From NCBI RefSeq assembly GCF_030384885.1, contig NZ_CP128613.1: a DNA stretch of 64,000 bases; one strand, 5' to 3'. Both the position numbers and the translations under genes were made by a program. Below are positions 40-24,618 of the stretch, piece by piece. Numbering within the stretch: the first letter of the stretch is position 1; each line of letters begins with the position of its first letter. Below the pieces are notes generated by a model, which was not told the DNA's origin, did no database searches, and saw nothing but the letters and a program-made list of their open reading frames with translations. Source of the stretch: Escherichia coli (lineage in GTDB: Bacteria > Pseudomonadota > Gammaproteobacteria > Enterobacterales > Enterobacteriaceae).

Positions 40-783
40 ATGGATGGTCCGACAAAACAAGAATTTGAAGAGATGTTGGAACCAGAAGGTTTAGATTTGA
101 ATAATTATCTCACCGACTCTTGCACACCTGTCAGGAAGGTTACAATTTCCCCGATGCTGGTTGAAAGAAACGTTCACGCCGAACCAAGTTGGAAGGAAGT
201 ATCTCTTACGGACCCCCGCATCACAGAGAACAGCATGCTGCAAAAATTTCTGTCTGATTATATGGAAAAAATTAATCCTGGAGTTCACGAATTAAACGCA
301 AGATTGAGATTACAATATATAGATGGGGATTTATTTGCACAAATATATGAATCAATTAGCTATGATGAGTTACTTCAAAATATCCAAAGCAATAGTTTTG
401 ATCTTCCGAGCGAAGATGAATGGGAATATTTATGTGGCGGTGGTTCCAGGACACTCTGGCGCTGGGGGAATAATTTCGACTATCAAATGAAAATCCCATT
501 TATTACTTCAGAAGAACCAACAACCTGGGATATAGAATGGCCTAATCAGTTTGGGTTGCAGATTGCATTTGATCCCTATCTTCAGGAAATTATTAATGAT
601 AAAGATATTCTTCTGAAAGGTGGCGATGGTGGGTGCAATCTCTGCGGAGGTGCTAATGTTGTATTAGGATTCTTGCCTGTGGCAACTTATTACAAAGGAT
701 ATAATAAACATACGGACGAATTAGAATATATGGATGACATTGGAGACAATTATACTTCTTATCGCAGAATAATTCGTTTATGA
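40..783 (+). CDS. hypothetical protein with FGE-sulfatase-like (SUMF1/EgtB/PvdO-type) domain
   Basis: 247-aa ORF; motifs SEDEWEYLCGGG, WRWGNN and PNQFGLQ resemble the conserved core of formylglycine-generating-enzyme-family domains; sits in AT-rich DNA. Confidence 0.45.
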   Translation: MDGPTKQEFEEMLEPEGLDLNNYLTDSCTPVRKVTISPMLVERNVHAEPSWKEVSLTDPRITENSMLQKFLSDYMEKINPGVHELNARLRLQYIDGDLFAQIYESISYDELLQNIQSNSFDLPSEDEWEYLCGGGSRTLWRWGNNFDYQMKIPFITSEEPTTWDIEWPNQFGLQIAFDPYLQEIINDKDILLKGGDGGCNLCGGANVVLGFLPVATYYKGYNKHTDELEYMDDIGDNYTSYRRIIRL

Positions 784-834
784 GTAAAAATTATATTTCA
801 GGACAAGAAGTTATGCTCGAGTCAAGCTAATGAA

Positions 835-2346
835 TTGCTTAACGCAAGGAATAAAAACGTATTGATGAACACTGGGAATTTCGAGTCGATACAAATCATG
901 ATCGCCGCGCAAGAGTGGCGTAGCCTGCCGCTGCATCTGCGTTTGTATCAGGCTTTTCGTCAGTTGGTGATTTCTGGCGCGTTGTCTGATGGCGCAAAAC
1001 TGCCGTCCGCTCGCGCACTGGCCCAGCAACTGCACCTTTCCAGAGATACCATCGAAAATGCCTATTCCCAGCTCCACCGCGACGGTTTTATGGCTCGCAG
1101 GCAGGGGGCCGGGAGTTTCGCCAGCCGCCAGGGGATACCGCATATTCAGGGCCAGCATGCGCAACCACCCTCGCCCGGACAAGTACCGGCTTTAAGCGCT
1201 CGCTGGCAGCCAATTGCCGATCGCGCAGTCTCTTTCGATGCCCGCCAGATGCAGACCTTTACGCTTGGCCTGCCGGAAACGCGAAACTTCCCGCTAAACA
1301 TTTGGCAGAACTTTTCCCGCCAGATCCAACGTGAGCAGGCGCATACGCTGATGTTAAATAGCGATCCGCAGGGCGAGCCACAGCTGCGCCAGCAAATTGC
1401 GCATTACCTTAATTTTGAACGCGGCGCGAAGGTAGATGCCGGGCAGATTGTGATTGTCAGCGGCGCACGGCAGGCGTTCTGGCTGTGCGGGCAACTGCTG
1501 GCAGAGGCCGGACAGTCGGTGGCGATGGAAAATCCGGGCTATCCCGGCGCGCGTCAGGCGTTTTCTGCCGCACAGCTTAATCTTCTTCCCGTTGAAGTGG
1601 ATGACGCCGGGATCCGGGTGGATAAACTGCCGCCCGCGCCGCTGGTTTACGTCACGCCCTCGCACCAGTTTCCTTCCGGTCATTTGCTCACGCTGGCGCG
1701 GCGTCATGCCCTGATTGCCTGGGCGCAGGCGCACAATGCATGGATTATCGAAGACGACTACGACAGCGAATTTCACTACACCAGCGCGCCCGTCGCCTGT
1801 CTGCAAGGGTTAGACTGCGAGCAACGCACCCTGTATGTCGGCACTTTCAGCAAAACGCTCTATCCCGGCCTGCGCATCGGTTATCTGGTGGTGCCGACGT
1901 CGCTGGCTGCGCACTTTGCCGCCGCGCGTAATTTGCTTGATGGCGCAACGCCTGCGTTATCCCAACTAACGCTGGCGCGATTTATCGAGTCCGGTCATTT
2001 TGCCGCCCATATTCGCAACATGCGCAGTATGTACGCAGTGCGACAGGCGAGCCTGGCAGAGGCTATTCATCAACACTTAAGTGAATGGGTCACGCCAGTG
2101 GTGACATCCGGTGGGTTACAAATGCCCTGCTGGCTGCATGAAGGTATTGATGAGCAACAGACGCTAAATGCCGCGCGCCGCGCCGGGTTAAACATCGCCG
2201 GAATGCGCCAGTTCTGGCTGACGCACCCCGCGCCCGCGGGCTGGCTGCTGGGATTTGCCGCCTTTACCCCCTACGAGATTGAACAGGGCGTCAAGCGTCT
2301 GCGGGCTGCATTATGCACTGAAAACGTGCGCCCAGCCGGGTCATAA
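835..2346 (+). CDS. MocR/GntR-family transcriptional regulator with PLP-dependent aminotransferase-like domain
   Basis: 503-aa ORF; N-terminal HTH-like segment (LPSARALAQQLHLSRDTIENAY) followed by an aminotransferase-fold domain with candidate PLP lysine (TFSKTLYPG); true start probably an internal Met near 898. Confidence 0.7.
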   Translation: MLNARNKNVLMNTGNFESIQIMIAAQEWRSLPLHLRLYQAFRQLVISGALSDGAKLPSARALAQQLHLSRDTIENAYSQLHRDGFMARRQGAGSFASRQGIPHIQGQHAQPPSPGQVPALSARWQPIADRAVSFDARQMQTFTLGLPETRNFPLNIWQNFSRQIQREQAHTLMLNSDPQGEPQLRQQIAHYLNFERGAKVDAGQIVIVSGARQAFWLCGQLLAEAGQSVAMENPGYPGARQAFSAAQLNLLPVEVDDAGIRVDKLPPAPLVYVTPSHQFPSGHLLTLARRHALIAWAQAHNAWIIEDDYDSEFHYTSAPVACLQGLDCEQRTLYVGTFSKTLYPGLRIGYLVVPTSLAAHFAAARNLLDGATPALSQLTLARFIESGHFAAHIRNMRSMYAVRQASLAEAIHQHLSEWVTPVVTSGGLQMPCWLHEGIDEQQTLNAARRAGLNIAGMRQFWLTHPAPAGWLLGFAAFTPYEIEQGVKRLRAALCTENVRPAGS

Positions 2347-3397
2347 TCTCATACGGGATGGTGTTGCAGGCAGCGGCAACCTGTTCCAGCGTCTGGCCTG
2401 CGCCAATAAATTCCACCTTATCGCCCGCTGTCGGCGTGACGGCGCTGGCATCGACCATAAAGCTGTCCATACAAACCCGCCCCAATACCGGTAACCGCAC
2501 GCCGCGCCAGCATACGCCCGCCGGAGGACGCATATTTCGCGGAACGCCATCCGCGTAACCCGCGGATATCGTAGCGATACGCAGCGGACGCGTGGCGGTA
2601 ATCGTACTGCCATAGCCAACTGGCGTTCCCGCCGGGACATCCTGCACGCGCAGAATAGTTAGCGTCAGCGTAAAAGCCGGTTTTAGCGGCCTGGAAAACC
2701 ACGGCTGGGCGACGCCAAACAGCGCAATCCCCGGACGGCAGAGATCTTCCCGCCAACCTGGTTGCAAAAACATTCCGCAGGAGTTCGCCAGCGAAAATCG
2801 GCTGCTGGGGAAAACCGTTTTTGCCTGCTGGAATAGCGCGTGTTGCGCCACATTTAACGCATGATCCGGCCTGTCGGCGTTCGCCAGATGGCTGATGATA
2901 TAGTCCGGCGCAGGCCAGTTACGCTCACGAAATATCGCCGCCAGACGCATCAGTTGTTGCGGCATCACGCCCAGCCGCGACATACCGGAATCGAGCTGGA
3001 TCATCACCGCACGCCGCTGCTGGCGCGTTTCCAGTAACGTAAGCCACGCCATCACCTGGTCAATGGAATTGAGCAATGGCGTGATCTGCTGCGCGTAACA
3101 ATACGCCATCGCCTCCGGCATAACCCCATTAAGCACTACCACCATCGCATCAGTGGGCAGGATTTTACGCAGCGCCACGCCCTCCGAAAGCTGTGCCACA
3201 AAAAAGATCCGGCAGTTCGCCGCATACAGGGCGGGCGCAATCGCCTCCGCCCCCAGACCATAGGCATTGGCTTTCAACACCGCGCCACATTGCGCAGGGG
3301 CAACATGGCGCGCCAGCGTGCGATAATTATCGACGATGGCGGCGAGATTGACGCACATAACGCCGCACGCCGCCTGGATTTCAGTAGAAGTCATCAT
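2291..3397 (-). CDS. alanine racemase family protein (PLP-dependent)
   Basis: 368-aa ORF with PLP-lysine motif VLKANAYGLG typical of alanine racemases; start overlaps the stop of the upstream SHMT-like gene. Confidence 0.7.
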   Translation of the reverse strand: MMTSTEIQAACGVMCVNLAAIVDNYRTLARHVAPAQCGAVLKANAYGLGAEAIAPALYAANCRIFFVAQLSEGVALRKILPTDAMVVVLNGVMPEAMAYCYAQQITPLLNSIDQVMAWLTLLETRQQRRAVMIQLDSGMSRLGVMPQQLMRLAAIFRERNWPAPDYIISHLANADRPDHALNVAQHALFQQAKTVFPSSRFSLANSCGMFLQPGWREDLCRPGIALFGVAQPWFSRPLKPAFTLTLTILRVQDVPAGTPVGYGSTITATRPLRIATISAGYADGVPRNMRPPAGVCWRGVRLPVLGRVCMDSFMVDASAVTPTAGDKVEFIGAGQTLEQVAAACNTIPYEIMTRLGARFQCIMQPADA

Positions 3398-4632
3398 TGA
3401 TAAGACAACGGGTAGCGGTTGGTTAGTTGTATTACTTTTTGCTCAATATCGGCGCAAATGCCTGCGATATCTGACGAGTTGATGGCGAAAATGATTTCAC
3501 TTATCCAGTCAGCAATAAGCACAAAATCATCCGCCTTCATCCCACGCGTGGTGCAGGCCGCGCTGCCAATACGGACCCCGGAGGTAATCGACGGCGGCTG
3601 CGGATCGCCCGGCAGGGTGTTTTTATTGACCGTGATCCCCGCCAGTTCGAGAAAGTACTCCACCTGTGCGCCGGTTAACCCCTGCGGGCGCAGGTCGATA
3701 ATCCCCAGATGGCAGTCGGTGCCGCCCGTTAACAGCGTCAGACCGCGCTGCGCCAGTTGCTGGCACATCGCCTGCGCATTGTCGATAACCTACCCGGCGT
3801 AACGTTTAAATTCTGGTTGTAATGCCTCGCCAAGCGCCACCGCTTTCGCCGCGATAACGTGCATCAACGGCCCGCCCTGCAAACCGGGAAAGATGGCGCT
3901 GTCGATTTTTTTCGCAAGCCTGGCGTCATTGGTGAGGATCATGCCGCCGCGCGGCCCGCGCAACGTTTTATGCGTGGTGGTGGTGACCACATCAGCATAC
4001 GCCAGCGGCGAAGGAAAACAGCCGCCCGCCACCAGCCCGGCAAAGTGCGCCATATCCACCAGCAAAATGGCATCAACGGCATCGGCAATGCGGCGAAAAC
4101 GGGCAAAATCATAGTGGCGTGGATAAGCCGATCCTCCGGCAATAATTAACCGTGGGCGCTCGCGTAGCGCGATCATCTCGACCTCATCCATATCAATCAG
4201 GCCACTATGGGCATCGACGCCATAGTGAAAGGCGTTAAACCATTTGCCGGATTGATTGACCGGAGAACCGTGCGTGAGATGCCCGCCGCATTGCAGGCTC
4301 ATGCCAAGAATTTTGTCGCCGGGCTTCAGCAACGCCAGATAGACCGCCTGATTCGCCTGGCTGCCGGAGTGAGGCTGCACATTGACGTAACGCGCGCCAA
4401 AGAGCTGCTGCGCGCGGGTTATCGCCAGCATCTCAACCTCATCAATAAACTTACAGCCGCCGTAATAGCGATGCTGGTAATAACCTTCGGCGTATTTATT
4501 GGTTAACACCGACCCCTGCGCCGCGAGAACGGCGGGGCTTACGAAATTCTCCGAGGCAATCAGTTCCAGCGACTGCTGCTGGCGCTGTTGCTCCTGGTTA
4601 ATCAATGCAAAAAGTGGATCGTTATTTATCAT
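3394..4632 (-). pseudogene. serine hydroxymethyltransferase (GlyA-like) paralog interrupted by an in-frame TAG at 3790-3792
   Basis: ORFs 3790..4698 and 3394..3768 are in the same frame; both halves align to SHMT ([17 protein letters not shown]-lysine motif; GITVNKN); the stop sits where GlyA has a Gln in the YQQQV region. Confidence 0.65.
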
Positions 4633-4864
4633 GCGCTTCCCCCGCAAATTCATCATGCGATGATTTTCGCAGGGAAAACCTCGTCCGCACCCTGCCACTT
4701 TTTAGACTGAGCGCAGACCACCTATGTCGTTTTACTTAAAAGAAGAGGGAAGAAGGCTCCAGGCATCTCCATATGCGATTCTGGTTGGTAATACATCATA
4801 TTCCAGCTGCTCTTATCCGCCTACGTTATTGCATATACGGATAAGGCAGCCTCAATACGTACTT

Positions 4865-6430
4865 TTACTTGATATCTTTCACGCGCATACCGTTGATCTG
4901 TTCATCCGTGATGGTATTACCCGCTTTAAAGTAATCAACCACCGCGTGATAAACGTAATAACCGCCCGTCGTATTGCGCGCTTTACCCTCGGTAAACGCG
5001 GTAAAACCATCTCCACCATCAGCAAGGAAACTCTGAGTGGCAATGTGGTAAACCGTCGCATCTTCAATCGGTTCGCCATTCAGAGTCAGCGAGATAACCC
5101 GCTGACCAACCGGCTTGCTGCTGTCGTACTTCATTTCCAGGCCTTTCGATACCTGTAAAACGCCATTACTTAAACTTGCGCCGTGTTCCATCAAACTGCG
5201 TAATTGTTTACCCGTGAGTTCCATCGTCACCAGTTCGTTGGGGAACGGGAAGGTACTGATGACGCCACCCATCGTAATTGCACCCGCCGGGATCTCATTG
5301 CGGATACCGCCAGAGTTGGTTAACGCCAACTGGGTATTTTTACCCGCCGCTGCCAGCAAAGCGTCCGCCGCCAGATTCCCGAGAGAAGCCGATTCACCAT
5401 AGGCACGTTTCAATTCAACTGGCGATTGCGCCACCGTTTGCTGCACGACTTCATCCAGCTTTTTATTCCAACTATCAATCACCTGTTTTGTTTGCGGATC
5501 GGGCTTCCACTCGTCGGCGTAAAGGGTTTTAAGCTCGAAGTTTTTCACCGTAAAAGTGTGCGGCTTCTCTTTGTAGTCTAGAACCAGTTTACCCACATCA
5601 ATCCCGCCGCTGTCAGTGGAGAGGATTAACGTATTGCCGACTTTAATCGGTTCCGGCGTACCCACATGTGCATGCCCGGTGATCAAAATATCCAGCCCTT
5701 TCACCTGACTTGCCGTCTGAATATCTTTATCCAGTGCGCGGCGCACATCTGTGCCCCCCATACTGGACTGGCGGGCCGGAACACCTTCGTGAATCAGCGC
5801 AACGGTCAAATCAACCTTGCCTTTGAGTTCATCGATATAACGTTGTAGCCATTTAATTTCATCACGCGCCTCAATACCCACTCGCGTTGCCGCAGATACC
5901 GTATCATTAAAGGCAAATACACCGTGCAAACCAATCACGCCAATTTTCACGCCGTCTTTTTCAATGATGGTATAGGGCTTATCCCAGAATGATTTACTGC
6001 TGTTCTGATAAAAAACATTACCCTGCACAATCGGGAATTTTGCCTGACTCAACTGTAATAACGTATTGTCCCAGCCGTGATCAAATTCATGATTACCTAT
6101 AGTGGCCGCATCGAACGGCATGGTATTCATAATATCGATAATCGCCTTGCCTTTAGTCAGGCTGCTAATATACGGCCCGGTAAAATAGTCACCCGCATCA
6201 AAAAACCAGGTCGCTTTGTTTTTAGCTTTTTCTTGTTTAACAAGCGTAGTGATATTTGCCCAGCCGCCAATATCTCGTTTACCGTCAGCAATCCACGGCA
6301 CTTTATAAGGCTCTACATGTGCATGGAGGTCGTTGGTATAAATGATGGTGACATCTTTGGCGCAAGCCCAAAACGGCAGTGTTAATGCGATACCCGCAGC
6401 AAGCATTTTAATTTTCATAAACAATCCCAT
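4865..6430 (-). CDS. secreted bifunctional metallophosphatase / 5'-nucleotidase (UshA family), paralog 1
   Basis: 521-aa ORF; signal-peptide-like N-terminus; metallophosphatase motifs [23 protein letters not shown]; C-terminal 5'-nucleotidase domain. Confidence 0.8.
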
Positions 6431-6477
6431 CCAGTGAGATAAAGGATTGCTACATTACGTTCTGAAAGGCTTTTTTA

Positions 6478-6493
6478 TGTGAGAATACTCACA
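6478..6493. promoter_or_regulatory. perfect consensus CRP-type site TGTGA-N6-TCACA in divergent promoter region
   Basis: sequence TGTGAGAATACTCACA read directly between the divergent nucleotidase gene (4865..6430) and the zinc-ribbon gene (6551..7678). Confidence 0.4.
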
Positions 6494-6550
6494 TCCAGAG
6501 GCGATAACTGTAGGACAAAATCAACGACCTTATGAAATCGTTGGTGATAT

Positions 6551-7678
6551 ATGTCAAATCTGTTTGCGATTAATGTCTGTAAAACGTTCGGTTGTCGAAA
6601 TTTGGGATTGGCCTCATCGGAAGATTACAGTTGGCCAGACTATAAACTGGGTTTTCCGGCACTGCACTGCCAGGCATGCGGAAGTTACCCCCCTTTGTTT
6701 GATGAACAACAATTTCGTGACTGGTTGTCAGTTCACATGACTGCGTGTGCCATAGAAACAGGGCATTTTTGTCCATCATGCTATTGTAAAGAAAAGATTT
6801 TTTATGGCCACAACCCGCAGGGAACACAACGCGTTCAATGCCGTTCATGCAAAAAAGTCTGGACTCCGAAACAGCAGCCAGCAAGAGAAATTACGTATCC
6901 CCAGTCCATTGAAACCGTTCAACTGTTCATGCCCTTTCAAGGAGCCAGCGCAGTACAAAAGCTCTATGTTTTAGTCAGTCTTGACGCCACTCGTGGCAAC
7001 ATCCTTCATCTCTCCACGAATTATACGCAACATCAGACAGGAGACAGTCTGCGGTACAGTTACAGAGGCAATACAGAACCAACTGAGCACCATAGCGATA
7101 TTGCGCAGAGGGTAGATATGCGTGAAGCACAATTCTTGCGCCGGAGCCAGTTCGATGAAATTCAGTATGGCAGTGCTGTGCTCAAGCGCAACGGCAAGGG
7201 AGCCATACTACGCCCGGTTATCACGGCACACGGGCATTTCAGAATACTGAAAATCCGCTTTCCACATGTCAAAACGCATATCATTTCACACGAATGTTTT
7301 CTGAGAGGCGCAATTATTACAGCCTGGGCAGATCAGTTCCGCCAACAACAAGGCGAACTTTGGTTCGTAGAGGAAGAAATCAGCGACCGTAATGCTGATA
7401 TTCCCTGGCATTTTCAGGGAACGACATACCATGGTTGGTGGCAAAATCAGTGGCAACGCTGGGGGCAGGGGAATAACAGCAAGATGGTCTGCCTGCTCAC
7501 AGGAGTCTCCTTAGAAAGGGGCGCAAATGTTTCTCTGGCAACCAGTCGTTGCTTTATCACATGGCTGACAGACCAACACGACTTTACCCAAAGCGCGTTA
7601 TTATCCGCAGGTCGCGTAACGAAAATGCTGACCTCACTGGCGTTAAAATACAATGAATCGCTCACTCCATCTTGTTAG
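6551..7678 (+). CDS. hypothetical protein with N-terminal Cys-rich zinc-ribbon (IS1 InsA-like / transposase-type zinc finger)
   Basis: 375-aa ORF; Cys pattern CPSCYC...QRVQCRSCKKVW resembles InsA-type zinc ribbons; the rest has no motif I recognise. Confidence 0.45.
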   Translation: MSNLFAINVCKTFGCRNLGLASSEDYSWPDYKLGFPALHCQACGSYPPLFDEQQFRDWLSVHMTACAIETGHFCPSCYCKEKIFYGHNPQGTQRVQCRSCKKVWTPKQQPAREITYPQSIETVQLFMPFQGASAVQKLYVLVSLDATRGNILHLSTNYTQHQTGDSLRYSYRGNTEPTEHHSDIAQRVDMREAQFLRRSQFDEIQYGSAVLKRNGKGAILRPVITAHGHFRILKIRFPHVKTHIISHECFLRGAIITAWADQFRQQQGELWFVEEEISDRNADIPWHFQGTTYHGWWQNQWQRWGQGNNSKMVCLLTGVSLERGANVSLATSRCFITWLTDQHDFTQSALLSAGRVTKMLTSLALKYNESLTPSC

Positions 7679-7907
7679 TCAATACACTCGACAAACGACC
7701 ATAAATTAATGGGATCACTATTTCTCATTTAATTAAATATATGAATGTATGACTGAAAAATATAATCACAGTCAATGTTTAATTAATAACATTATTTGTT
7801 ACTAAGATCACATAATACTTTCCTGACCTATGTTTACATAAAAATAAGACACGGTGTTCCTTTTATTTAAATAATTCAACCAATGTAACAACCCCTATCA
7901 AGGAGGG

Positions 7908-9461
7908 ATGATGAGAACTGTATTTACGACTTTATCAGTCATATTCAGCGTGATGTTTTCTCACAGTATACTAGCTCAGGACGTTACTATTTATTATACG
8001 AATGATATTCACGCACATGTCAATCCGGCAAAAATTCCCGCTGTTGATAAGAACAGACTTGTAGGTGGTATGGCTAATATTGCAGGCATCGTTAATGAAG
8101 CGAAGAAAAAAAACAAAGATGTCTTTTTCTTTGATGCAGGCGACTATTTTACCGGTCCGTATATCAGTACCCTGACCAAAGGTGAAGCTATTATTGATAT
8201 CATGAACACCATGCCCTTTGATGCGGTGTCCGTTGGTAATCACGAGTTCGATCACGGCGTGCCCAATATGGTATCTCAGTTATCAAAAGCAAAATTCCCC
8301 ATTCTGCTGGGAAATATTTACTACACCGATACAAATAAACCAGTTTGGGATCATCCGTGGACCATTATCGAAAAAGATGGTTTAAAGATTGGTGTGATTG
8401 GATTGCATGGTGCATTCGCTTTCTATGATACAGTCGCGGCAAAAGCACGTGAAGGCGTAGAAGCCAGAGACGAAATTAAATATTTAAATAAAGCACTTGC
8501 AGAATTAAAAGGTAAAGTCGACATTACCGTTTTGCTAATTCACGAAGGTGTTCCGGCGCGTCAATCAAGCTTTGGTAGTAAAGATGTGGAGCGGCTACTA
8601 CAGGCAGATATTGAGACAGCTAAAAAAGTGAATGGTGTTGATGTCTTAATTACCGGTCACGCACATGTCGGAACACCGCAACCAATAAAAGTTAATAACA
8701 CATTAATTGTATCTACCGATGCATACGGCACCGACATCGGAAAACTTGTGCTTGATTACAATCCGAAAACAAAGAAAATTGATAGTTATAATGGTGAGTT
8801 AATCACCATCTTTGCAGATCAATTTAAACCTGACACCATCGTTCAAAATACTATCGATAAATGGAGCATAAAGCTTAACAAAATAACACAGGAAGTTGTC
8901 GGCCATTCTCCCGTAGTTTTAACACGTGAGTATGGCAGTTCTTCTTCTACCGGTAACCTTATTCTAGATGCAATGATGGAAAAAACACCTGATGCCATTG
9001 CCGGATTTCAAAATAGCGGTGGGATGCGAGCTGATTTTCCTAAAGGTGATATCACACTGGGAGATGTTATTAGCACATTCCCCTTTAATAATGACCTCAT
9101 CGAGATGGATTTGACGGGCCGCGATCTCAAATCATTGATGACGCATGCAACCAATCTAACTAACGGTGTGTTACAGGTTTCAAAAAGCGTTGCGGTTGTC
9201 TATGACAGCAAAAAACCACTCAACCAACGGTTAATCTCTTTCACCATTAACGGCAAACCCGTGGAAGATAATCAAACATATCGTATTGCCACGCACTCCT
9301 TTTGTGCCAGTGGTGGTGACGGTTTTGAAGCATTTTTGAATGGAAAAAATGTGAAGACGATACCGGGAACAACCTCGGCGGAATCTATCATCGATTATTT
9401 CAAAAATCATAAACCTGTCACCCCAGACTTAACTAAACGAGTCATGGACGTCGCCAAATAA
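7908..9461 (+). CDS. secreted bifunctional metallophosphatase / 5'-nucleotidase (UshA family), paralog 2
   Basis: 517-aa ORF; signal peptide; same metallophosphatase motifs as paralog 1 ([23 protein letters not shown]). Confidence 0.8.
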   Translation: MMRTVFTTLSVIFSVMFSHSILAQDVTIYYTNDIHAHVNPAKIPAVDKNRLVGGMANIAGIVNEAKKKNKDVFFFDAGDYFTGPYISTLTKGEAIIDIMNTMPFDAVSVGNHEFDHGVPNMVSQLSKAKFPILLGNIYYTDTNKPVWDHPWTIIEKDGLKIGVIGLHGAFAFYDTVAAKAREGVEARDEIKYLNKALAELKGKVDITVLLIHEGVPARQSSFGSKDVERLLQADIETAKKVNGVDVLITGHAHVGTPQPIKVNNTLIVSTDAYGTDIGKLVLDYNPKTKKIDSYNGELITIFADQFKPDTIVQNTIDKWSIKLNKITQEVVGHSPVVLTREYGSSSSTGNLILDAMMEKTPDAIAGFQNSGGMRADFPKGDITLGDVISTFPFNNDLIEMDLTGRDLKSLMTHATNLTNGVLQVSKSVAVVYDSKKPLNQRLISFTINGKPVEDNQTYRIATHSFCASGGDGFEAFLNGKNVKTIPGTTSAESIIDYFKNHKPVTPDLTKRVMDVAK

Positions 9462-9495
9462 AATATCATTTATCAGTCTATTTATTTAACAAGGA

Positions 9496-11121
9496 ATGCG
9501 AATGAAAACAGTGCAGCGTACTTTACTTGCCGCAACATTGCTGACTATTTTTTCGGTCTCGGTCATGGCGCAGGATGTCACGATTATTTATACAAATGAT
9601 CTTCACGCTCATGTGGATTCTTATAAAGTGCCGTATATCGCAGACGGAAAACGCGACATTGGCGGCTTTGCCAATATATCTACTTTAGTAAAACAAGAGA
9701 AAGCGAAAAATAAAGCCACCTTTTATTTTGATGCTGGAGACTATTTCACCGGCCCTTATATCAGCAGTCTGACAAAGGGCGAAGCAATAATTGACATTAT
9801 GAATACCATGCCTTTTGACGCAGTATCAATCGGTAATCATGAGTTTGACCATGGCTGGGATAATGCCCTGCGACAATTAAGCAAAGCGAATTTTCCTGTT
9901 TTATTGGGCAATGTTTATCATAAAGAGAGTGAAAAACCCTTCTGGAACAAGCCCTACACCATCCTGGAAAAAGATGGCATCAAGATTGGTATTATTGGGC
10001 TACACGGCGTATTTGCATTTAATGATACGGTCTCGGAGCTCTCTCTCCAGGGACTCGATAATGACAATAATAACCGCTTTGATAAATCTTCCGAGACCCT
10101 TAAGAATCAGGGGATTGAAGCACGTGATGAAGTGAAGTATTTGCAGCATTATATCGACGAGTTACGTGATAAGGTTGACCTCACTGTGGCGCTGGTTCAT
10201 GAAGGCGTTCCGGCGCGTCAGTCCAGCATTGGCAATACAGATGTTAGACGCGCTCTTGATAAAGATATTCAAACCGCTAGCAAGGTGAAAGGATTGGATA
10301 TTCTGATTACCGGGCATGCCCACGTCGGAACGCCAGAACCAATCAAAGTCGGCAACACCTTAATCCTTTCGACTGATAGTGGCGGTATCGATATTGGTAA
10401 ATTAGTCCTTGATGTCAACCCTACAGCTCGTACCCATAAAATGAAGAGCTTTGAGCTGAAAACAGTTTATGCCGATGAATGGATACCCGATCCAACGACA
10501 CAAAAAGTTATCAATGGCTGGAATAAAAAACTGGCGGATATTGTACGCCAACCAGTGGGTGAATCATCGATTGCATTAACTCGCGCCTATGGTGAGTCAT
10601 CGCAACTAGGCAACCTGTTTACCGATGCAATGCTTGTCGCTGCTCCGACTGCACAGATTGCATTGATAAACTCCGGCAGCTTACGTGCGGATATAAATGC
10701 AGGCACGATTACCTTTGGCGACATTACCAGTACATTCCCCTTCAAGAATGAACTTACTGAAATGGATCTCAGCGGTAAGGATCTGCGTAACCTACTGGAA
10801 CACGGGGCATCGCTTACCAATGGCATCCTGCAAATGTCAAAAGGCGCAGAAATGCGCTATACCCCGCAGAAACCAGTAGGTCAGCGCATAGTATCTTTTA
10901 AAATTAATGGTGAAGAGATCGTTGATACGAATATTTACCATGTTGCAACAACGACTTTCCTTGCACTGGGGGGCGATGGTTTTCTGGCATTCAAAGAAGG
11001 GAAAAATGTTCAGGTCCGCGCCGGAAAAAACATGTCCGATGTCGTGATCGATTATTTGAAGAAAGGCCACAAGATTACGCCTGCACAGGTAAATGAAATG
11101 CGGGTGGACGTTAGCAAATAA
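9496..11121 (+). CDS. secreted bifunctional metallophosphatase / 5'-nucleotidase (UshA family), paralog 3
   Basis: 541-aa ORF, closely similar to paralog 1 by eye, with a short inserted segment (LQGLDNDNNNRFDKSSETLKNQG). Confidence 0.8.
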   Translation: MRMKTVQRTLLAATLLTIFSVSVMAQDVTIIYTNDLHAHVDSYKVPYIADGKRDIGGFANISTLVKQEKAKNKATFYFDAGDYFTGPYISSLTKGEAIIDIMNTMPFDAVSIGNHEFDHGWDNALRQLSKANFPVLLGNVYHKESEKPFWNKPYTILEKDGIKIGIIGLHGVFAFNDTVSELSLQGLDNDNNNRFDKSSETLKNQGIEARDEVKYLQHYIDELRDKVDLTVALVHEGVPARQSSIGNTDVRRALDKDIQTASKVKGLDILITGHAHVGTPEPIKVGNTLILSTDSGGIDIGKLVLDVNPTARTHKMKSFELKTVYADEWIPDPTTQKVINGWNKKLADIVRQPVGESSIALTRAYGESSQLGNLFTDAMLVAAPTAQIALINSGSLRADINAGTITFGDITSTFPFKNELTEMDLSGKDLRNLLEHGASLTNGILQMSKGAEMRYTPQKPVGQRIVSFKINGEEIVDTNIYHVATTTFLALGGDGFLAFKEGKNVQVRAGKNMSDVVIDYLKKGHKITPAQVNEMRVDVSK

Positions 11122-14710: not shown

Positions 14711-15871
14711 TTACCCCTTGTTTGCAGCCCGGAAGCCATTTTCCAGGTCGGCAATTAAATCTTCGCCATCTTCAATACCGGTGGAGATACGCAGCAGCGT
14801 CTCGGAGATCCCGGCGGCAGCACGCGCTTCTGGTGCCATGCCTGCATGTGTCATGGTTGCGGCGTGAGAGATTAAACTTTCCACTCCCCCTAATGATTCC
14901 GCCAGCGTAAACAACGACAACCCGCCCAGGAAACGACGCAGCGTCTGCTCATCGCCATCCAGTTCAAAACTCAACATTGCGCCAAAGCCTTTTTGCTGGC
15001 GCGCGGCAATTTCATGCCCCTGATTTTCCGGCAGCGACGGGTGATACAGTTTTTTCACTAACGGCTGGGTTTGCAGATATTTCACTATCGCCTGCGCGTT
15101 GCGCTGCGCCAGCTCCATACGCGGCACCAGCGTTCGCAAACCGCGCAGCAACAAATAACTGTCAAACGCGCCGCCCGTCACGCCAATATTGTTTGCCCAC
15201 CAGGCCAGTTCGGTGACAACGTCCGGGTCTTTAGCAATCACCACGCCAGCCACTACATCTGAGTGACCGTTCAGATATTTCGTGCATGAATGCAACACCA
15301 GATCGGCACCTAATGCCAGTGGATTTTGTAATGCCGGGCTTAAGAAGGTGTTATCCACCACGCTCACCGCCCCGACTTCCCTTGCCAGATGGCAGATTTT
15401 CGCAATATCCACGACGCGTAACAATGGATTACTTGGGCTTTCTACCAGTACTAGTTTGGGTTTTTCTGCCAGTGCAGCCTGCAATGCCTGCTCATCTCCT
15501 TGATCAACAAACAGCACGCGATAACAGCCGCGTTTCGCCAGGCTGTCGAACAGGCGATAGCTGCCGCCGTAGCAGTCGTGCGGCGCAACCAGCAAATCGC
15601 CAGGTTTCAAAAAGACGGTCGTTACCAGGTGGATGGCAGACATGCCGGTATTAGTCAGCACTGCACCAGCACCGCCTTCCAGTTCAGCCAGCGCACGCTG
15701 AACCACATCGCGCGTTGGGTTGCCGCGACGCGAGTAATCATGCGCGCGCGGTTCATTAAATCCGGTAAAGTTATAGGTGCTGGAAAGATGGATGGGAGGG
15801 ACAACGCAACCATACTGTTCGTCGTCATTTAACCCGCTACGCACTGCAATGGTGGCCTGTTTACGCGTCAT
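14711..15871 (-). CDS. metB: cystathionine gamma-synthase
   Basis: recognised as MetB (MTRKQATIAVRSGLNDDEQYG...); the track ORF extends further upstream, start moved to the Met matching the 386-aa protein. Confidence 0.95.
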   Translation of the reverse strand: MTRKQATIAVRSGLNDDEQYGCVVPPIHLSSTYNFTGFNEPRAHDYSRRGNPTRDVVQRALAELEGGAGAVLTNTGMSAIHLVTTVFLKPGDLLVAPHDCYGGSYRLFDSLAKRGCYRVLFVDQGDEQALQAALAEKPKLVLVESPSNPLLRVVDIAKICHLAREVGAVSVVDNTFLSPALQNPLALGADLVLHSCTKYLNGHSDVVAGVVIAKDPDVVTELAWWANNIGVTGGAFDSYLLLRGLRTLVPRMELAQRNAQAIVKYLQTQPLVKKLYHPSLPENQGHEIAARQQKGFGAMLSFELDGDEQTLRRFLGGLSLFTLAESLGGVESLISHAATMTHAGMAPEARAAAGISETLLRISTGIEDGEDLIADLENGFRAANKG

Positions 15872-15926
15872 GTGATGAAGTTCCCTGGGCTTGGTCGGTG
15901 AAATGTCAGGCACCAGAGTAAACATT

Positions 15927-15966
15927 GTGTTAATGGACGTCAATACATCTGGACATCTAAACTTCT
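15927..15966. promoter_or_regulatory. tandem met boxes (MetJ operator) in the metJ / metBL divergent control region
   Basis: tandem 8-bp repeats GGACGTCA ATACATCT GGACATCT AAACTTCT, matching the AGACGTCT met-box consensus. Confidence 0.6.
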
Positions 15967-16147
15967 TTGCGTATAGATTGAGCAAATCCCAAATAGCCGT
16001 TAAAATTATATGCATTATCACGCCGACAGGTGCATTACACGATGTCACGGTAACGCCTGTACGGTAAACTATGCGGGTTTACGGTCAGTACCCACATAAA
16101 TTGTGTGGTCTGATCTCAATTTATTGACGAAGAGGATTAAGTATCTC

Positions 16148-16465
16148 ATGGCTGAATGGAGCGGCGAATATATCAGCCCATACGCTGAGCACGGCAAGAA
16201 GAGTGAACAAGTCAAAAAGATTACGGTTTCCATTCCTCTTAAGGTGTTAAAAATCCTCACCGATGAACGCACGCGTCGTCAGGTGAACAACCTGCGTCAC
16301 GCTACCAACAGCGAGCTGCTGTGCGAAGCGTTTCTGCATGCCTTTACCGGGCAACCTCTGCCGGATGATGCCGACCTGCGTAAAGAGCGCAGCGACGAAA
16401 TCCCGGAAGCGGCAAAAGAGATCATGCGTGAGATGGGGATTAACCCGGAAACGTGGGAATACTAA
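16148..16465 (+). CDS. metJ: methionine repressor MetJ
   Basis: recognised as MetJ ([35 protein letters not shown]...); start moved to the Met matching the 105-aa protein. Confidence 0.95.
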
Positions 16466-16524
16466 AGCGGAAAAGAGCGGCGCGGAGTTAACCAGCCGCT
16501 TTTTTCATACATGGACGTTTAACT

Positions 16525-17133
16525 ATGAAATACAGGCTACTGATCCTCAACCTGCTGGTTTCTGTGCCTGCCTTTGCCTGGCAGCCGCAAACTGGCGACA
16601 TCATCTTTCAAATCTCTCGCTCATCGCAAAGTAAAGCGATCCAACTGGCGACCCATTCCGATTACAGCCACACCGGTATGCTGGTGATGCGTAACAAAAA
16701 GCCCTACGTTTTTGAAGCGGTCGGCCCGGTGAAATACACCCCGCTCAAGCAGTGGATCGCCCATGGTGAAAAGGGTAAATACGTTGTTCGCCGCGTTGAA
16801 GGCGGACTGAGTGTTGAACAACAGCAAAAACTGGCGCAAACGGCAAAACGTTATCTCGGAAAACCGTACGATTTCAGCTTCTCATGGAGCGACGATCGCC
16901 AGTACTGTTCGGAAGTGGTGTGGAAGGTTTACCAGAATGCGCTGGGGATGCGCGTGGGTGAACAGCAAAAACTGAAAGAGTTCGATCTCAGCAACCCGCT
17001 GGTTCAGGCGAAGCTCAAAGAACGTTACGGGAAAAATATTCCGCTTGAGGAAACGGTGGTCTCGCCACAAGCCGTTTTCGATGCGCCACAACTCACCACA
17101 GTCGCCAAAGAATGGCCGCTGTTTTCGTGGTAA
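16525..17133 (+). CDS. yiiX: YiiX family protein (putative lipid-binding hydrolase)
   Basis: 202-aa ORF with signal peptide; recognised as YiiX; position next to metJ matches K-12. Confidence 0.85.
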   Translation: MKYRLLILNLLVSVPAFAWQPQTGDIIFQISRSSQSKAIQLATHSDYSHTGMLVMRNKKPYVFEAVGPVKYTPLKQWIAHGEKGKYVVRRVEGGLSVEQQQKLAQTAKRYLGKPYDFSFSWSDDRQYCSEVVWKVYQNALGMRVGEQQKLKEFDLSNPLVQAKLKERYGKNIPLEETVVSPQAVFDAPQLTTVAKEWPLFSW

Positions 17134-17136
17134 TGG

Positions 17137-17250
17137 ATGATGAAAAAAATAATTCCCGCCGTAGTCTGTTTGTTGCTTTGTAGTTGCACGACCTTTCCGC
17201 AAGCTGTCGCTCCGGCAGGGAAAGATTACGAAAGCCCGCTCCCAGCAAGG
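17137..17250 (+). other. lipoprotein-like ORF fragment running into the ISAs1 element
   Basis: ORF 17137..17514 begins MMKKIIPAVVCLLLCSCTT (signal peptide with lipobox-like LCSC) and then overlaps the 3' end of the transposase gene on the opposite strand. Confidence 0.25.
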
Positions 17251-18480
17251 ACTGACGCCAGATACTTTCTGTCCATGGCTGCTTTTCGCATCTTACGTCT
17301 TAACCCTGCCTTGAATACCTTATCATTCGTTAAAATATTAATAGCGATGTGCCGTATCCCTGAAAATAATTCTGCGGCGTTTCCTCTTCGTATTTTGCAG
17401 TCGTCTTCATTCATTACCACGTCCAGACGCCAGTGCAGCTTATTCTCCACGTGCCAGTGGTTTCGGATTGCTGTGGCGAACTTTTCTGCGGTTAAATCAG
17501 CAGAACTGATATAATATCTGACCGTCATTTCTGGCTCTTTCTTTTGTTCTGCTATTATTGACCGAAAGGAGAATGCCACGCATAATTTCTTCAGTCCTTT
17601 CCATTCAAACGTGAAATCAATAAGTTCATCACGGACATCGCAAACAATATGAAGACGGATTTCTTCTCTGCCGTGACTCTTTTCACTCATTGCGTAACTG
17701 TCATGCTCTGGATTATTTAATTCTTTCAGCGGAAATTTTTCCTCGAAGGCTTTATTTAGCCGCCCCTGGTTTCCTTTTACAGCGAATACATAATCACCGC
17801 CCTGTTTTTGTATCTTCTCTGCAATATCTTTCTGGCAACCCATCGCATCAGTTGTGATGATTTTTCCTTTAATATCCAGCATGTTAAGAAGTTCAGGGAT
17901 AGCTGTAATTTCATTGGATTTCTCATCCGTCCTGATCTGTCCGATGACCAGACTGTGCATTGTTGAGAATGCACTAATGACATGAATCGCTCCCCTGCGG
18001 CGACTCTTGTCATAAGAATGCCGGAGTGTTTTTCCATCAATTGCGATGACGTCTTTATCATCTGAAGTATGGCAATCTCGCATCCAGTTAATAAAGCACT
18101 CGTGAAATTTTGAAGGACTGATACAGGATACAACTCTGGCGATGGTATCGTGAACAGGAATACCATTTTCAAAATCACCATATTGTTTTAAAAAATCGCG
18201 ATGTGCTTCCCCAAAATCCTCTATATGTTCCCAGCCTTCTGCACCAGAAATAACGGCGCAAATAGTCAACAGTAGAATATCCGATAATTTATGTTCCACT
18301 TTCCAGGTTTGTCTGTAATCGGGGATAATAGAAATATGTTCCATCAATTTTTTAAGTTCCATTCTTTTCTCCTTAATTATGTAAGGAGTATTTGATCATG
18401 TATAAGCAATAAAAAAACAGCTTCAGGCAATGAGGAATATCTCAATTTTTAAACATAAAATGCGAATTGTTTAGTACAAA
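17140..18480 (-). mobile_element. ISAs1-family insertion sequence (H-repeat element); ends approximate
   Basis: single transposase ORF filling a segment of about 1.3 kb, typical of H-rpt elements; terminal repeats not determined. Confidence 0.6.
17226..18362 (-). CDS. ISAs1-family transposase (H-repeat-associated protein)
   Basis: 378-aa ORF recognised as the H-repeat (H-rpt) protein found in Rhs elements. Confidence 0.85.
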
Positions 18481-18489
18481 AAAGCAGCG

Positions 18490-19100
18490 TTAAGTGAGTA
18501 GGCCACCGGAACCTCCCCGACAGCCTCTCGCAGAACCGTACGTGAAACTCTCGCTTCATACGGCTCCCGTCAGGCAAACGCGCTTCCTGGTCCTGCTTTC
18601 CAGTGGGCAAACAACTCCGGCTTCTCTTTTGACAGCCTTTCCATTAGCTGACACGCCTTCGTCTTTCTATACCGCAGGGTTTTATATTTCTTTCTCGCCC
18701 ACGCAATCAGCGTCAGATTAATATATCTGCATACTTTCTTCATCGCTGATTTGTGGTATCTCGCGTAATAATTCAGCCACCCCAATATTATCGGATTCAG
18801 CCACTTCGCAATATCTTCGAGACTCATCTCCACCCTGCGTCTGATCCACAGTTTCCTGAGTTTTCCAATCATGCCTTCGGGTTTACTCATCTCACTGTAT
18901 CTCACATAGGATCAGATCTCGTCTGATCGTTCCCCCTGCGCTCACTACCATGGCTCTTTACCACAGCAGCCGGGGTTGTTTGGGACCGACTTCCGACAGC
19001 AGATCCCGGTGGGCCTGCCACCATCTCTTCACAAGCTTATGCTTATTACATGCAAAACGTCCCGTTTTGCATCTTTGTGCCTACGGCACACCGTGATCTT
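18490..19100 (-). mobile_element. 5'-truncated group II intron remnant (maturase C-terminus plus RNA domains V and VI)
   Basis: ORF 18570..18905 carries a maturase-like motif (WLNPIILGWLNYYARY); downstream on the same strand, about 18532-18566, is GAGCCGTATGAAGCGAGAGTTTCACGTACGGTTCTG, which folds as a domain-V-like hairpin. Confidence 0.6.
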
Positions 19101-19111
19101 TCCCTGTCGGC

Positions 19112-19320
19112 ATGTTGACCACTGACGAATGGGGTAGTTACGCTAGAGAGTTACCAAAGGAGAAGCATCTGACTGGTAAGATTTTTACTCAGCATATTGA
19201 GCGTAACAATCTGACCCTGAGAACCCGAATCAAACGTCTGGCCCGCAGAACCATCTGTTTCTCGCGTTCTGTAGAACTTCATGAAAAAGTCATCGGTGCT
19301 TTTATCGAAAATATATGTTC
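19112..19320 (+). pseudogene. IS1-family transposase (InsB-like) C-terminal fragment
   Basis: ORF 19112..19426 contains TDEWGSYARELPK...FTQHIERNNLTLRTRIKRLARRTICFSRSVELHEKVIG, similar to the C-terminal part of IS1 InsB; no N-terminal part. Confidence 0.6.
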
Positions 19321-19395
19321 TACTAATTGGAGTCATCACCCTTCTGATGAGCTTTCCTTGGATGATTACCAGACTGAATACATAGCCAAAGATTT

Positions 19396-19719
19396 TTACC
19401 TCATTCTGCTTTTTTTTCTCAAATGACATATATTATATTTTACATCATATTCATAGGCATATGACATTCCCCCGCCCCCCATTATGTCATTGTGGGTTGA
19501 TGTTGGGCTTTCATAAAAAAATACATCTTTTTTTGAACTAGCATTAATTATATTTACTTTATATATTAAAATATTTTCTCCATCTGGAAATATTTTAGCC
19601 ACACAATATAAAGCAGCCAAATCCGAATTACTTAAAAATATATTGTCATCACTCATAACTCCAGCCATTAAATGACTGGAGACTAAAGCAAGGAAATAAC
19701 AACATTGTATTGCCTTCAT
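19396..19719 (-). CDS. putative immunity protein for the adjacent Rhs C-terminal toxin
   Basis: about 107 aa from internal Met (MKAIQCCYFLALVSSHLMAGV...), hydrophobic signal-peptide-like N-terminus; start codon lies 1 nt after the toxin stop with an AAGGGAG RBS; very AT-rich. Confidence 0.5.
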   Translation of the reverse strand: MKAIQCCYFLALVSSHLMAGVMSDDNIFLSNSDLAALYCVAKIFPDGENILIYKVNIINASSKKDVFFYESPTSTHNDIMGGGGMSYAYEYDVKYNICHLRKKSRMR

Positions 19720-19720
19720 T

Positions 19721-20275
19721 TTAATTACTCCCTTGCCTGATAATTGTAACTCCATTCCCTTTAGCTTTGGGATTATATTTTAGATAGGTGTTATTTGGTG
19801 TTCCCAAGTAACTACTGTATTCTTTTTTTCCCATTCCATTCATATAAGAATTCGTTAAATCTTTGCTTGAAAAATTTAGACTATCATAAACATCATTTTC
19901 TTTTGTTACTTTATTTCCTTTATCGTCAGAGTAAAAACCGTGAGTGTGATAATCGCCTACTCTCTCTGAACCTTCAGGGCATTTTATATTTCGCAAGTCT
20001 ACACTATCATTATCATTTGAACTTATCGGATTCATGGGGAAATATTCACCTTGCTTCTTACATATTAGTCCACCATATTCTTTATTCTCGTTAATTGATT
20101 CTCCATTACACATTGCCAATGCAAATATTCCAATATCATCTATATTTTTTGATTTAAATTCATATAATCCTAATGGATCCATGCCATTCACCGGGCTCAG
20201 CGGATATGTATACAGGTTCCATCCCCCCTTCAGCCCAATCGGATCCTGAGTGATATACCGCCCCTGTAACCGTCC
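19721..20275 (-). CDS. Rhs C-terminal tip: end of Rhs core (DPxGL motif) plus variable toxin domain
   Basis: reading frame encodes ...[35 protein letters not shown] followed by about 145 aa of low-GC sequence with conserved Cys/His (GDYHTHG); DPxGL marks the core/toxin boundary in Rhs proteins; no in-frame ATG at the 5' end. Confidence 0.6.
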
Positions 20276-20664
20276 TCACCGGGAAACAGGTGCTCAAAAT
20301 ACAGGCTTCTGCCGCCGTTATCACTGAGTATCAGAGTGTTATCGCGCAGCTGCAAGCGGATATCCGCAGGCATTTTCCAGCCGGGGCCGAGGCTCCCCAC
20401 CGGCGCGGGCGTTTTTGTCCGGTAACTGCTGTAGGTGCGGGAGAGGATGAACGGCAGCGGGCCGGGCAGGGCAAGGTCGGTTTCGCCGGGAAGGACCTTC
20501 GCACCGAGCAGCGGATTGACCGGATGGCCGGACGTCACCCCGCCGGGGCACACCGAACAGGCCACGCCGGTGGGGGCACCAATACGTACCCCGGCAGAAC
20601 CCTGGACAATGGGGCCACCATACTGCGTCATGTCGCCCTGACGCGCCGCCGGTTTTCCGCTCAT
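20230..20664 (-). pseudogene. Rhs N-terminal (PAAR-like) fragment, out of frame with the C-terminal tip
   Basis: 144-aa ORF MSGKPAARQGDMTQYGGPIVQGSAGVRIGAPTGVACSVCPGG... matches the conserved N-terminus of E. coli Rhs proteins for about 125 residues, then terminates. Confidence 0.7.
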
Positions 20665-20786
20665 CGTAAAATCCTTTTAAAATAAATAAGAACCAGAAGC
20701 CTAGCGCCAGTCAACAACAGGAAATGATAATGAGTTAACACCCCGGAATGTTTCAGAATTTATAAAAGGCAAATTACAGGCACAAA

Positions 20787-20815
20787 AAAAGCGCCGTGCG
20801 GCGCTTTTTTCGGAA
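20787..20815 (-). terminator. rho-independent terminator downstream of rpmE
   Basis: hairpin AAAAAAAGCGCCGTGCGGCGCTTTTTT immediately after the rpmE stop. Confidence 0.65.
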
Positions 20816-20823
20816 ATCCGGTC

Positions 20824-21075
<252 letters not shown>

Positions 21076-21079
21076 CTAA

Positions 21080-23437
<2,358 letters not shown>

Positions 23438-23592
23438 TGCGCAAACGATGCGAGGCGGATCGAAAAATTCAATATTCATCACACTTTTCATGAAAATTCT
23501 GTAACCGTTTTCACGCGCTATCTGCTAAAAATGTTGCCGATGTGAAGTAAACATGGAAGTAGTACGCCTGCCGTGCCGGGCGAGGAGTGAGT

Positions 23593-24618
23593 GTGAAAGC
23601 GAAGAAGCAGGAAACTGCCGCGACCATGAAAGACGTTGCCCTGAAGGCAAAAGTCTCTACAGCGACCGTCTCCCGAGCATTAATGAATCCCGATAAAGTC
23701 TCCCAGGCCACCCGTAATCGGGTTGAAAAAGCGGCCCGGGAAGTAGGTTATTTGCCGCAGCCTATGGGGCGCAACGTCAAACGTAATGAATCCCGCACCA
23801 TTCTGGTGATTGTCCCGGATATCTGCGATCCCTTCTTTAGCGAAATTATTCGCGGTATCGAAGTTACGGCGGCAAATCACGGATATCTGGTGCTGATTGG
23901 CGACTGTGCGCATCAAAATCAGCAGGAAAAAACCTTTATCGATTTGATTATCACCAAGCAAATTGATGGCATGTTGCTGCTGGGTTCAAGGCTGCCGTTT
24001 GATGCCAGCATTGAGGAACAGCGTAATCTGCCGCCGATGGTGATGGCGAACGAATTTGCGCCGGAACTGGAGCTGCCTACAGTTCATATCGACAATCTGA
24101 CCGCCGCATTTGATGCAGTAAATTATTTATATGAGCAAGGTCATAAACGGATTGGCTGTATAGCCGGTCCCGAAGAGATGCCGCTGTGTCACTACCGCCT
24201 GCAAGGCTACGTTCAGGCGCTGCGTCGCTGCGGCATTATGGTTGATCCGCAATACATCGCCCGGGGCGACTTCTCCTTTGAAGCCGGAAGCAAAGCGATG
24301 CAACAGCTGCTTGCTCTTCCGCAACCGCCTACTGCTGTCTTCTGCCATAGCGATGTAATGGCGCTCGGCGCACTTTCTCAGGCAAAACGCCAGGGGCTGA
24401 AAGTCCCGGAAGACCTTTCCATAATCGGTTTTGATAACATCGACCTGACGCAATTTTGTGATCCGCCGCTGACAACCATCGCGCAGCCGCGTTACGAAAT
24501 CGGTCGGGAAGCTATGCTGTTATTGCTTGATCAAATGCAGGGGCAACACGTTGGCAGTGGCTCTCGTTTAATGGACTGCGAACTTATCATCCGGGGATCA
24601 ACGCGCGCGTTACCTTAA
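23593..24618 (+). CDS. cytR: LacI-family transcriptional repressor CytR
   Basis: recognised as CytR; probable GTG start giving 341 aa. Confidence 0.9.
   Translation: MKAKKQETAATMKDVALKAKVSTATVSRALMNPDKVSQATRNRVEKAAREVGYLPQPMGRNVKRNESRTILVIVPDICDPFFSEIIRGIEVTAANHGYLVLIGDCAHQNQQEKTFIDLIITKQIDGMLLLGSRLPFDASIEEQRNLPPMVMANEFAPELELPTVHIDNLTAAFDAVNYLYEQGHKRIGCIAGPEEMPLCHYRLQGYVQALRRCGIMVDPQYIARGDFSFEAGSKAMQQLLALPQPPTAVFCHSDVMALGALSQAKRQGLKVPEDLSIIGFDNIDLTQFCDPPLTTIAQPRYEIGREAMLLLLDQMQGQHVGSGSRLMDCELIIRGSTRALP

Follow-up and report, generated by a model that had tools for sequence, protein, structure and literature searches.

A core-deleted rhs allele between rpmE and yiiX of Escherichia coli, with a DUF4329 toxin tip out of frame and an intact putative immunity gene

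The stretch of DNA analysed here (the window) comprises 64,000 nucleotides (nt) of an Escherichia coli contig (NZ_CP128613.1, assembly GCF_030384885.1) and carries an Rhs element between rpmE and yiiX, with metL, metB, metJ and yiiX on one side and rpmE, priA, cytR and ftsN on the other. Window positions 15001–24000 were aligned by blastn with E. coli 2013C-4282 (NZ_CP027579.1) at 99.97–100% nucleotide identity, and the corresponding island of that strain is made up of an intact 4185-nt rhs gene (1394 amino acids (aa), WP_106907683.1), the small gene dsORF-f3 (WP_001612119.1), an IS1 remnant, a group II intron with ltrA and an ISAs1 transposase gene. The window is distinguished from this island by two deletions, one located in rhs and the other in the group II intron; the region upstream of rhs is unchanged. 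No other rhs sequence, and no intact rhs, was found in the 64-kb window by blastn and tblastn. The guanine-cytosine (GC) content is 64% in the N-terminal piece of the gene, 31% in the tip and 30% in the small open reading frame (ORF) that follows, the window average being 50%. The parts of the element, all on the minus strand, are the following:

20264–20664, minus strand: Rhs N-terminal fragment, codons 1–133 plus 2 nt, with a PAAR motif (MSGKPAARQGD) and DUF6531 (NF041261, Pfam; 99.75% identity to 2013C-4282 rhs nt 1–401)
20230–20664, minus strand: the ORF that is actually open, 144 aa, made up of 133 native residues and 11 out-of-frame residues before a TGA (ORF list; exact protein in GCA_904842275.1)
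20264–20266, minus strand: deletion junction, a CAG common to both sides (3-bp microhomology; blastn against 2013C-4282)
20165–20266, minus strand: Rhs core end, the last 34 codons, DPIGL-x18-DPLGL, frame shifted relative to the N-terminal fragment (NF041261; translation)
19721–20164, minus strand: toxin domain, 147 aa plus stop, DUF4329 / Tox-JAB-2, with the JAMM-type motif E29...H73-T-H75...S99-x-x-D102 (Pfam, alignment, model)
19396–19719, minus strand: dsORF-f3, 107 aa, intact, putative cognate immunity protein with a signal-peptide-like N-terminus and a conserved GGGG motif (identity to WP_001612119.1)

Window positions 24000–20264 correspond to 2013C-4282 positions 930–4666, and window positions 20266–18876 to positions 7905–9295 (blastn). 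What has been deleted from rhs is a 3,238-bp stretch of YD-repeat core (rhs nt 402–3639, 2013C-4282 4667–7904), and only rhs nt 1–401 and nt 3640–4185 are retained; as 3,238 leaves a remainder of 1 on division by 3, the toxin tip is out of frame with the head. An original prediction, made from the letters of the window, had described about 125 residues of Rhs N-terminus on the minus strand, about 30 residues of core end in a shifted frame ending in DPLGL, and the loss of about 3.5 kb of core. Each of these parts is present or, in the case of the core, was shown by alignment to the intact gene to be missing, though the dimensions have to be corrected to 133 native residues, 34 residues and 3,238 bp. 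The alignment to a full-length rhs, which had been proposed as a check, mapped the deletion junction to the CAG at 20264–20266; the tip does match an Rhs core end, and head and tip do not lie in one continuous frame.

Comparison with protein family models gives the same picture of a gene of which the two ends remain. The N-terminal fragment matches NCBIfam NF041261 (RHS_core) over model positions 1–139 (E 4.7e-85) and Pfam DUF6531 (E 3.7e-19), its PAAR motif being a weak match (E 0.037), while the core end matches NF041261 over model positions 1227–1261 of 1261 (E 9.4e-14) and reaches 32.2 bits with TIGR03696, just below the cut-off of 32.5. For a full-length Rhs protein, NF041261 has a cut-off of 2000 bits, compared with a total of 286 bits obtained here, and the YD-repeat core (approximately 1,100 residues, the shell) is not continuous. 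The gene in the window is thus a pseudogene remnant of an Rhs family member and not a functional member.

A 120-nt probe spanning the junction found no contiguous match in 5,426 complete E. coli genomes (megablast), its two halves being matched separately, and a 33-nt junction sequence had no match in a species-representative genome collection, as expected from a collection with one genome per species. The absence of the junction from all 5,426 complete genomes would agree with an assembly or sequencing artefact in a strain that in reality has a full-length rhs, as would the multi-copy nature of rhs cores (per E. coli genome, the 401-nt head and the approximately 100-nt core end are found at a median of 7 places) and the state of the adjoining group II intron, whose deletion boundaries differ between two sequences that are identical in other respects, which resembles repeat-related assembly trouble. 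Such an artefact is nevertheless very unlikely. The exact 144-aa fusion protein is encoded in an independent public record, NCBI assembly GCA_904842275.1 (contig CAJGVI010000014.1, 95.9 kb; two contigs are on record), which agrees with the window at 100% identity along 7,789 nt spanning the junction; the 3 bp shared at the join are far too short for mistaken bridging by an assembler, and the junction is flanked by unique sequence on the rpmE side and by the AT-rich tip. Because the same junction and the same 144-aa ORF occur in a public contig, and a 3-bp overlap cannot drive a false assembler join, the deletion is taken as real and recent.

The element itself is common. The tip together with dsORF-f3 (775 nt) is found in 2169 of the 5426 complete E. 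coli genomes, mostly at an identity of at least 99% and including O157:H7, and in 50 genomes the distance from head to tip is short enough for a core-deleted allele. At this same locus, Ecol_AZ147 lacks rhs nt 1475–3504 (13-bp overlap) and has an in-frame ORF of 715 aa, VTB97432v lacks nt 971–3204 (22-bp overlap) and has an in-frame ORF of 642 aa, and PSS-07 lacks approximately nt 400–2895 as well as nt 3380–3451 (first junction of about 7 bp), leaving 531 aa in frame. Core loss is therefore recurrent at the locus, and all that sets the window allele apart is its loss of frame. The Rhs element of which it is a pseudogene version is well catalogued in E. coli, and the allele itself is already present in public assemblies.

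These shortened alleles also bear on whether the window could encode a shortened functional effector, in which ribosomal frameshifting at the junction would yield a PAAR-toxin fusion devoid of the shell. Natural PAAR-DUF4329 fusions of 248 aa do exist beside vgrG (locus L009), and the mini-Rhs alleles of 531–715 aa in other strains are in frame. The window allele, by contrast, is out of frame, with stop codons of the tip frame lying immediately upstream of the junction (that frame opens at about 20275, directly after several stops); no slippery heptamer is present at the junction (GGTTACAGGGGCGG), and the context for autoproteolysis at the core end is absent from the fragment. We regard a frameshifted fusion of this kind as extremely unlikely.

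With regard to the breakpoints, the independent in-frame deletion of PSS-07 (829–835) is bounded on the left by GGTTAC (rhs nt 399), and the left breakpoint of the window (GGTTACAG, nt 401) is two bases away; this near-coincidence may reflect a local hot spot or may be due to chance. A separate rearrangement is represented by the E. coli "hypothetical protein B7C52_12490", in which the N-terminus of an ISAs1 (H-repeat) transposase is joined in frame to the core end and the same DUF4329 tip, its breakpoint lying almost at the same core-end position as that of the window.

The toxin tip had been described as very AT-rich sequence of about 145 aa beyond DPxGL, which agrees with the 147 aa and the low GC content found, and as a domain that could not be named, which can now be replaced by an assignment to Pfam DUF4329 (PF14220; E 3.9e-16, model positions 6–108 of 116). 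DUF4329 is the family named Tox-JAB-2 by Zhang et al. 2012, with the motif E, H[ST]H, S, D (PMC3482391). In an alignment of 46 sequences, the others being 25–71% identical to the window tip, E29, G32, Y72, H73, T74, H75, G76, S99, D102 and P123 are invariant. Of the conserved Cys and His residues pointed out earlier, the histidines (H73 and H75) hold in all 46 sequences, whereas the Cys is conserved among close relatives only, and the idea of catalytic Cys/His was consequently rejected. An AlphaFold2 model of the toxin is confident (predicted local distance difference test score (pLDDT) 94.8, predicted template modelling score (pTM) 0.90) and has a JAB/MPN fold, so that, as judged from alignment and model, the tip is a JAB/MPN-fold (Tox-JAB-2) domain with an intact metal-site motif. 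A sequence search of the PDB with the toxin returned only a chance match (E 0.17).

Zhang et al. 2012 predicted Tox-JAB-2 to be a nuclease by analogy with RadC (PMC3482391), and later papers repeat the designation "RNase" (ribonuclease). A more recent preprint describes the activity and the substrate of DUF4329 as still unknown (bioRxiv 10.1101/2024.03.05.583533), and no experimental report of DUF4329 activity was found in the literature searched. Stand-alone DUF4329 proteins were checked for signal peptides, but the proteins retrieved were mostly fragments or Rhs/PAAR tips and thus uninformative.

The small ORF coupled immediately to the toxin, as had been predicted, is dsORF-f3: its ATG at 19719 lies one base past the toxin stop codon and has GGGAG in front of it. 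All 324 of its 324 nt are identical to the coding sequence of WP_001612119.1 in 2013C-4282, named "RHS element protein dsORF-f3" in RefSeq. No Pfam match was obtained for it even at E ≤ 10 and no NCBIfam match, and a search of 1.84 billion representative proteins returned 27 matches only, most of them E. coli protein fragments. True homologues number five, with identities of 26–50%. One of these (48% identical, locus L005) stands after a DUF4329 tip of the same subfamily, about 70% identical to the window tip by eye, with the same 1-nt spacer, and another (29% identical, locus L006) after a decayed Salmonella-type DUF4329 remnant. In the latter locus a 100-residue Rhs head runs straight into the middle of the DUF4329 domain (77–972), the gene of the dsORF-f3 family behind it being intact, and a second, separate rhs core-end fragment lies just downstream (1084–1395). 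The pairing is thus kept across lineages while the small protein changes more quickly in sequence than the toxin, a pattern to be expected of a cognate immunity protein, and these sequence comparisons fit dsORF-f3 being the putative immunity protein of the tip. The presence of homologous pairs in the two loci also agrees with the original prediction of a tip paired with an immunity gene, although the window does not hold a classic displaced orphan but a main gene with its middle deleted.

In all six members of the dsORF-f3 family, a short charged segment at the N-terminus is followed by a hydrophobic stretch and a site of small residues, a character that is conserved though the sequence is not. 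In the structural model of dsORF-f3 the N-terminal segment is a low-confidence helix detached from the core, and the mature part has a cystatin/PepSY/NTF2-like fold. The protein is therefore probably exported, judging by the character of its start. An immunity protein that looks exported hints at a periplasmic site of action for the toxin, and a JAMM site combined with periplasmic action would point to a peptidase or isopeptidase rather than a nuclease. We tentatively propose, as a possibility with mixed support that we hold to be less likely than not, that enterobacterial Tox-JAB-2 Rhs tips are not cytoplasmic RNases but periplasmic JAMM-type metallopeptidases or isopeptidases acting on an envelope substrate and neutralised by an exported, cystatin/PepSY-like dsORF-f3 family. 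Candidate substrates may be peptidoglycan cross-links or the link between Lpp and peptidoglycan.

Other partners of such toxins show a similar character in some loci. For Tox-JAB-1, the sister clade, Zhang et al. 2012 noted a lipoprotein as partner (PMC3482391). Signal-peptide-like starts are seen in a Pfam Imm-NTF2-2 protein from a Scandinavium array of DUF4329 cassettes and in the ORF downstream of a DUF4329 protein in Luteimonas. The Scandinavium sp. array (L012, 2035–3501) resembles orphan cassettes and consists of the Imm-NTF2-2 protein, a 234-aa DUF4329 tip and a 76-aa ORF, the last being like the C-terminal half of the dsORF-f3 architecture without the hydrophobic start. The possibility that dsORF-f3 is itself a sequence relative of Imm-NTF2-2 was rejected on the grounds of the missing Pfam match and of an hhalign probability of 0.2% in an alignment with a Pfam Imm-NTF2-2 (PF15631) protein. 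The Imm-NTF2-2 family is described as having a conserved Y and W (PMC3482391); dsORF-f3 contains no Trp.

Whether the tip could still be made as a separate protein also has to be considered. Translated from an internal start, it might form with dsORF-f3 a toxin-antitoxin-like or regulatory pair at work within the cell that makes it. Ahead of DPLGL an in-frame GTG (20191) and an in-frame ATG (20182, the Met of NGMDPLGL) are available, the toxin domain and dsORF-f3, both intact, match their counterparts in the intact locus at 100% identity, and precedents exist in the orphan Rhs of Salmonella (PMC7043789) and, at a different locus, in RhsFint-RhsFI of enterohaemorrhagic E. coli (EHEC; PMC7618764). 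The tip frame has no start codon of its own with a clear ribosome-binding site, however, none that is convincing being found before GTG 20191 or ATG 20182, and predicted promoters are not above chance. An immunity protein, if exported, would moreover sit in another compartment than its toxin, and independent decays, in this locus and in Salmonella-type elements, have destroyed the toxin while keeping the immunity gene. An internal pair is accordingly unlikely. The identification of dsORF-f3 with RhsFI, the RNA-binding immunity protein of EHEC (PMC7618764), was examined and rejected, as the RhsFI locus is ECs0604/z0705, a different Rhs element.

What we consider very probable is that the window carries an ordinary E. 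coli rpmE-yiiX Rhs element inactivated by one internal deletion, dead as a weapon but with an immunity gene that is useful. The deletion at the 3-bp CAG removed the entire YD-repeat shell and left the tip out of frame with the PAAR/DUF6531 head. With both the shell and translational continuity gone, there would be no way to encapsulate the toxin or to load it onto the type VI secretion spike, and the locus would deliver no toxin and be dead as a weapon. If dsORF-f3 is transcribed from the unchanged upstream region, it would protect against neighbours firing the intact toxin, which is carried by about 40% of E. coli. A paralogous rhs copy could in principle serve to repair the gene by gene conversion. 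Since the 401-nt head and the approximately 100-nt core end, which are conserved among paralogues, flank the deletion, reactivation by recombination with such a copy is plausible on the basis of our analysis, and orphan tips in Salmonella have been reactivated by recombination (PMC3967940).

Further observations weigh for or against parts of this account and periplasmic action of the toxin. In its favour, dsORF-f3 is intact in the window, where the toxin gene is broken, whereas two other strains with an open toxin frame have it frameshifted independently, O157:H7 SS17 (8452–8774, 1-nt loss in an A-run) and Ecol_AZ147 (8280–8602, 1-nt loss in a T-run). A site of action outside the cytoplasm, or a silent type VI secretion system, would make it easier for a cell to live with an intact toxin whose immunity gene is broken. 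Against it, O157:H7 SS17 has a full toxin with a frameshifted dsORF-f3, so that the immunity gene can be dispensed with, at least when type VI secretion is silent. A promoter and terminator scan of 19000–21200 gave results at chance level (6 sites compared with 4.8 ± 2.4 expected from shuffled sequence) and is uninformative as to the expression of dsORF-f3. The downstream partner in the PAAR-DUF4329 locus beside vgrG has no signal peptide, so that periplasmic action may not be family-wide, and the predicted export of dsORF-f3 is based on the character of its sequence.

Taken by itself the locus matters little: the element is annotated in E. coli genomes by the thousand, and the window has a pseudogene allele of it. 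It does provide a clean and datable case of Rhs decay, in which one microhomology deletion kills the toxin gene and the immunity gene stays, and it fits the idea that loss of the weapon with the shield kept is favoured. Of greater value is the exported-looking partner of a JAB-fold toxin, which questions the "RNase" label attached to DUF4329 tips; if the periplasmic proposal were true, the repeated decay of the toxin with the immunity gene kept would reflect selection for immunity-only cells.

The remaining features of the island, situated between dsORF-f3 and yiiX, are these:

19115–19312, plus strand: IS1 transposase remnant, the downstream boundary of the Rhs element (2013C-4282 annotation "IS1 family transposase, incomplete", 8859–9056, mapped via the alignment; ORF 19112–19426)
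18493–19022, minus strand: group II intron remnant, most of ltrA lost to an internal 1,286-bp deletion with its junction at 18876/18877 (Rfam RF01999 at 18905–19022 and RF00029 at 18493–18568; 2013C-4282 alignment)
17226–18362, minus strand: ISAs1-family (H-repeat) transposase, 378 aa, intact, the final island element before yiiX (ORF list; 2013C-4282 annotation)

The 1,286 bp missing from the intron correspond to 2013C-4282 coordinates 9296–10581, while the public contig with the identical rhs junction (7790–8254) has a smaller, nested intron deletion corresponding to 9538–10351. Either successive deletions have taken place or a multi-copy intron has been assembled differently in the two cases. 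On the other side of the element, an L31 ribosomal-protein leader (RF03157, 60 bits, Rfam) was found 5' of rpmE at window positions 21043–21095, minus strand, which is ordinary and expected.

Among known systems the closest is the intact Rhs element at the same site, represented by 2013C-4282 and by z5488 of O157:H7. The latter is the EDL933 counterpart, whose C-terminus was noted to carry DUF4329, and has been called RhsB (PMC7216683). The window shares with it the rpmE-yiiX site, the flanking IS1, group II intron and ISAs1 sequences, and the N-terminus, core end, tip and dsORF-f3, and differs in lacking rhs nt 402–3639, which leaves the gene split and frameshifted, as well as 1,286 bp of the intron. 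The window tip likewise agrees with Tox-JAB-2 / DUF4329 (PMC3482391) in its Pfam match, motif, JAB/MPN fold and attachment to an Rhs protein with PAAR, but the immunity family listed for Tox-JAB-2 is Imm-NTF2-2, to which the partner dsORF-f3 does not belong by sequence.

The orphan rhs modules of Salmonella Typhimurium (PMC3967940, PMC7043789) are like the window in consisting of a tip and a short core-end stretch without a delivery part of their own, followed by an immunity gene, and in both cases the core homology retained is a substrate for recombination with a full-length rhs. Those orphans, however, lie downstream of an intact main rhs and stem from C-terminal displacement, whereas the window holds the main gene itself, internally deleted and still provided with its own N-terminus and upstream region. 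The mini-Rhs alleles of Ecol_AZ147, VTB97432v and PSS-07 have, like the window, lost YD-repeat core and kept the N-terminus, core end, tip and dsORF-f3, but they remain in frame and have overlaps of 13, 22 and about 7 bp, respectively, whereas the window allele is out of frame and was joined at an overlap of 3 bp.

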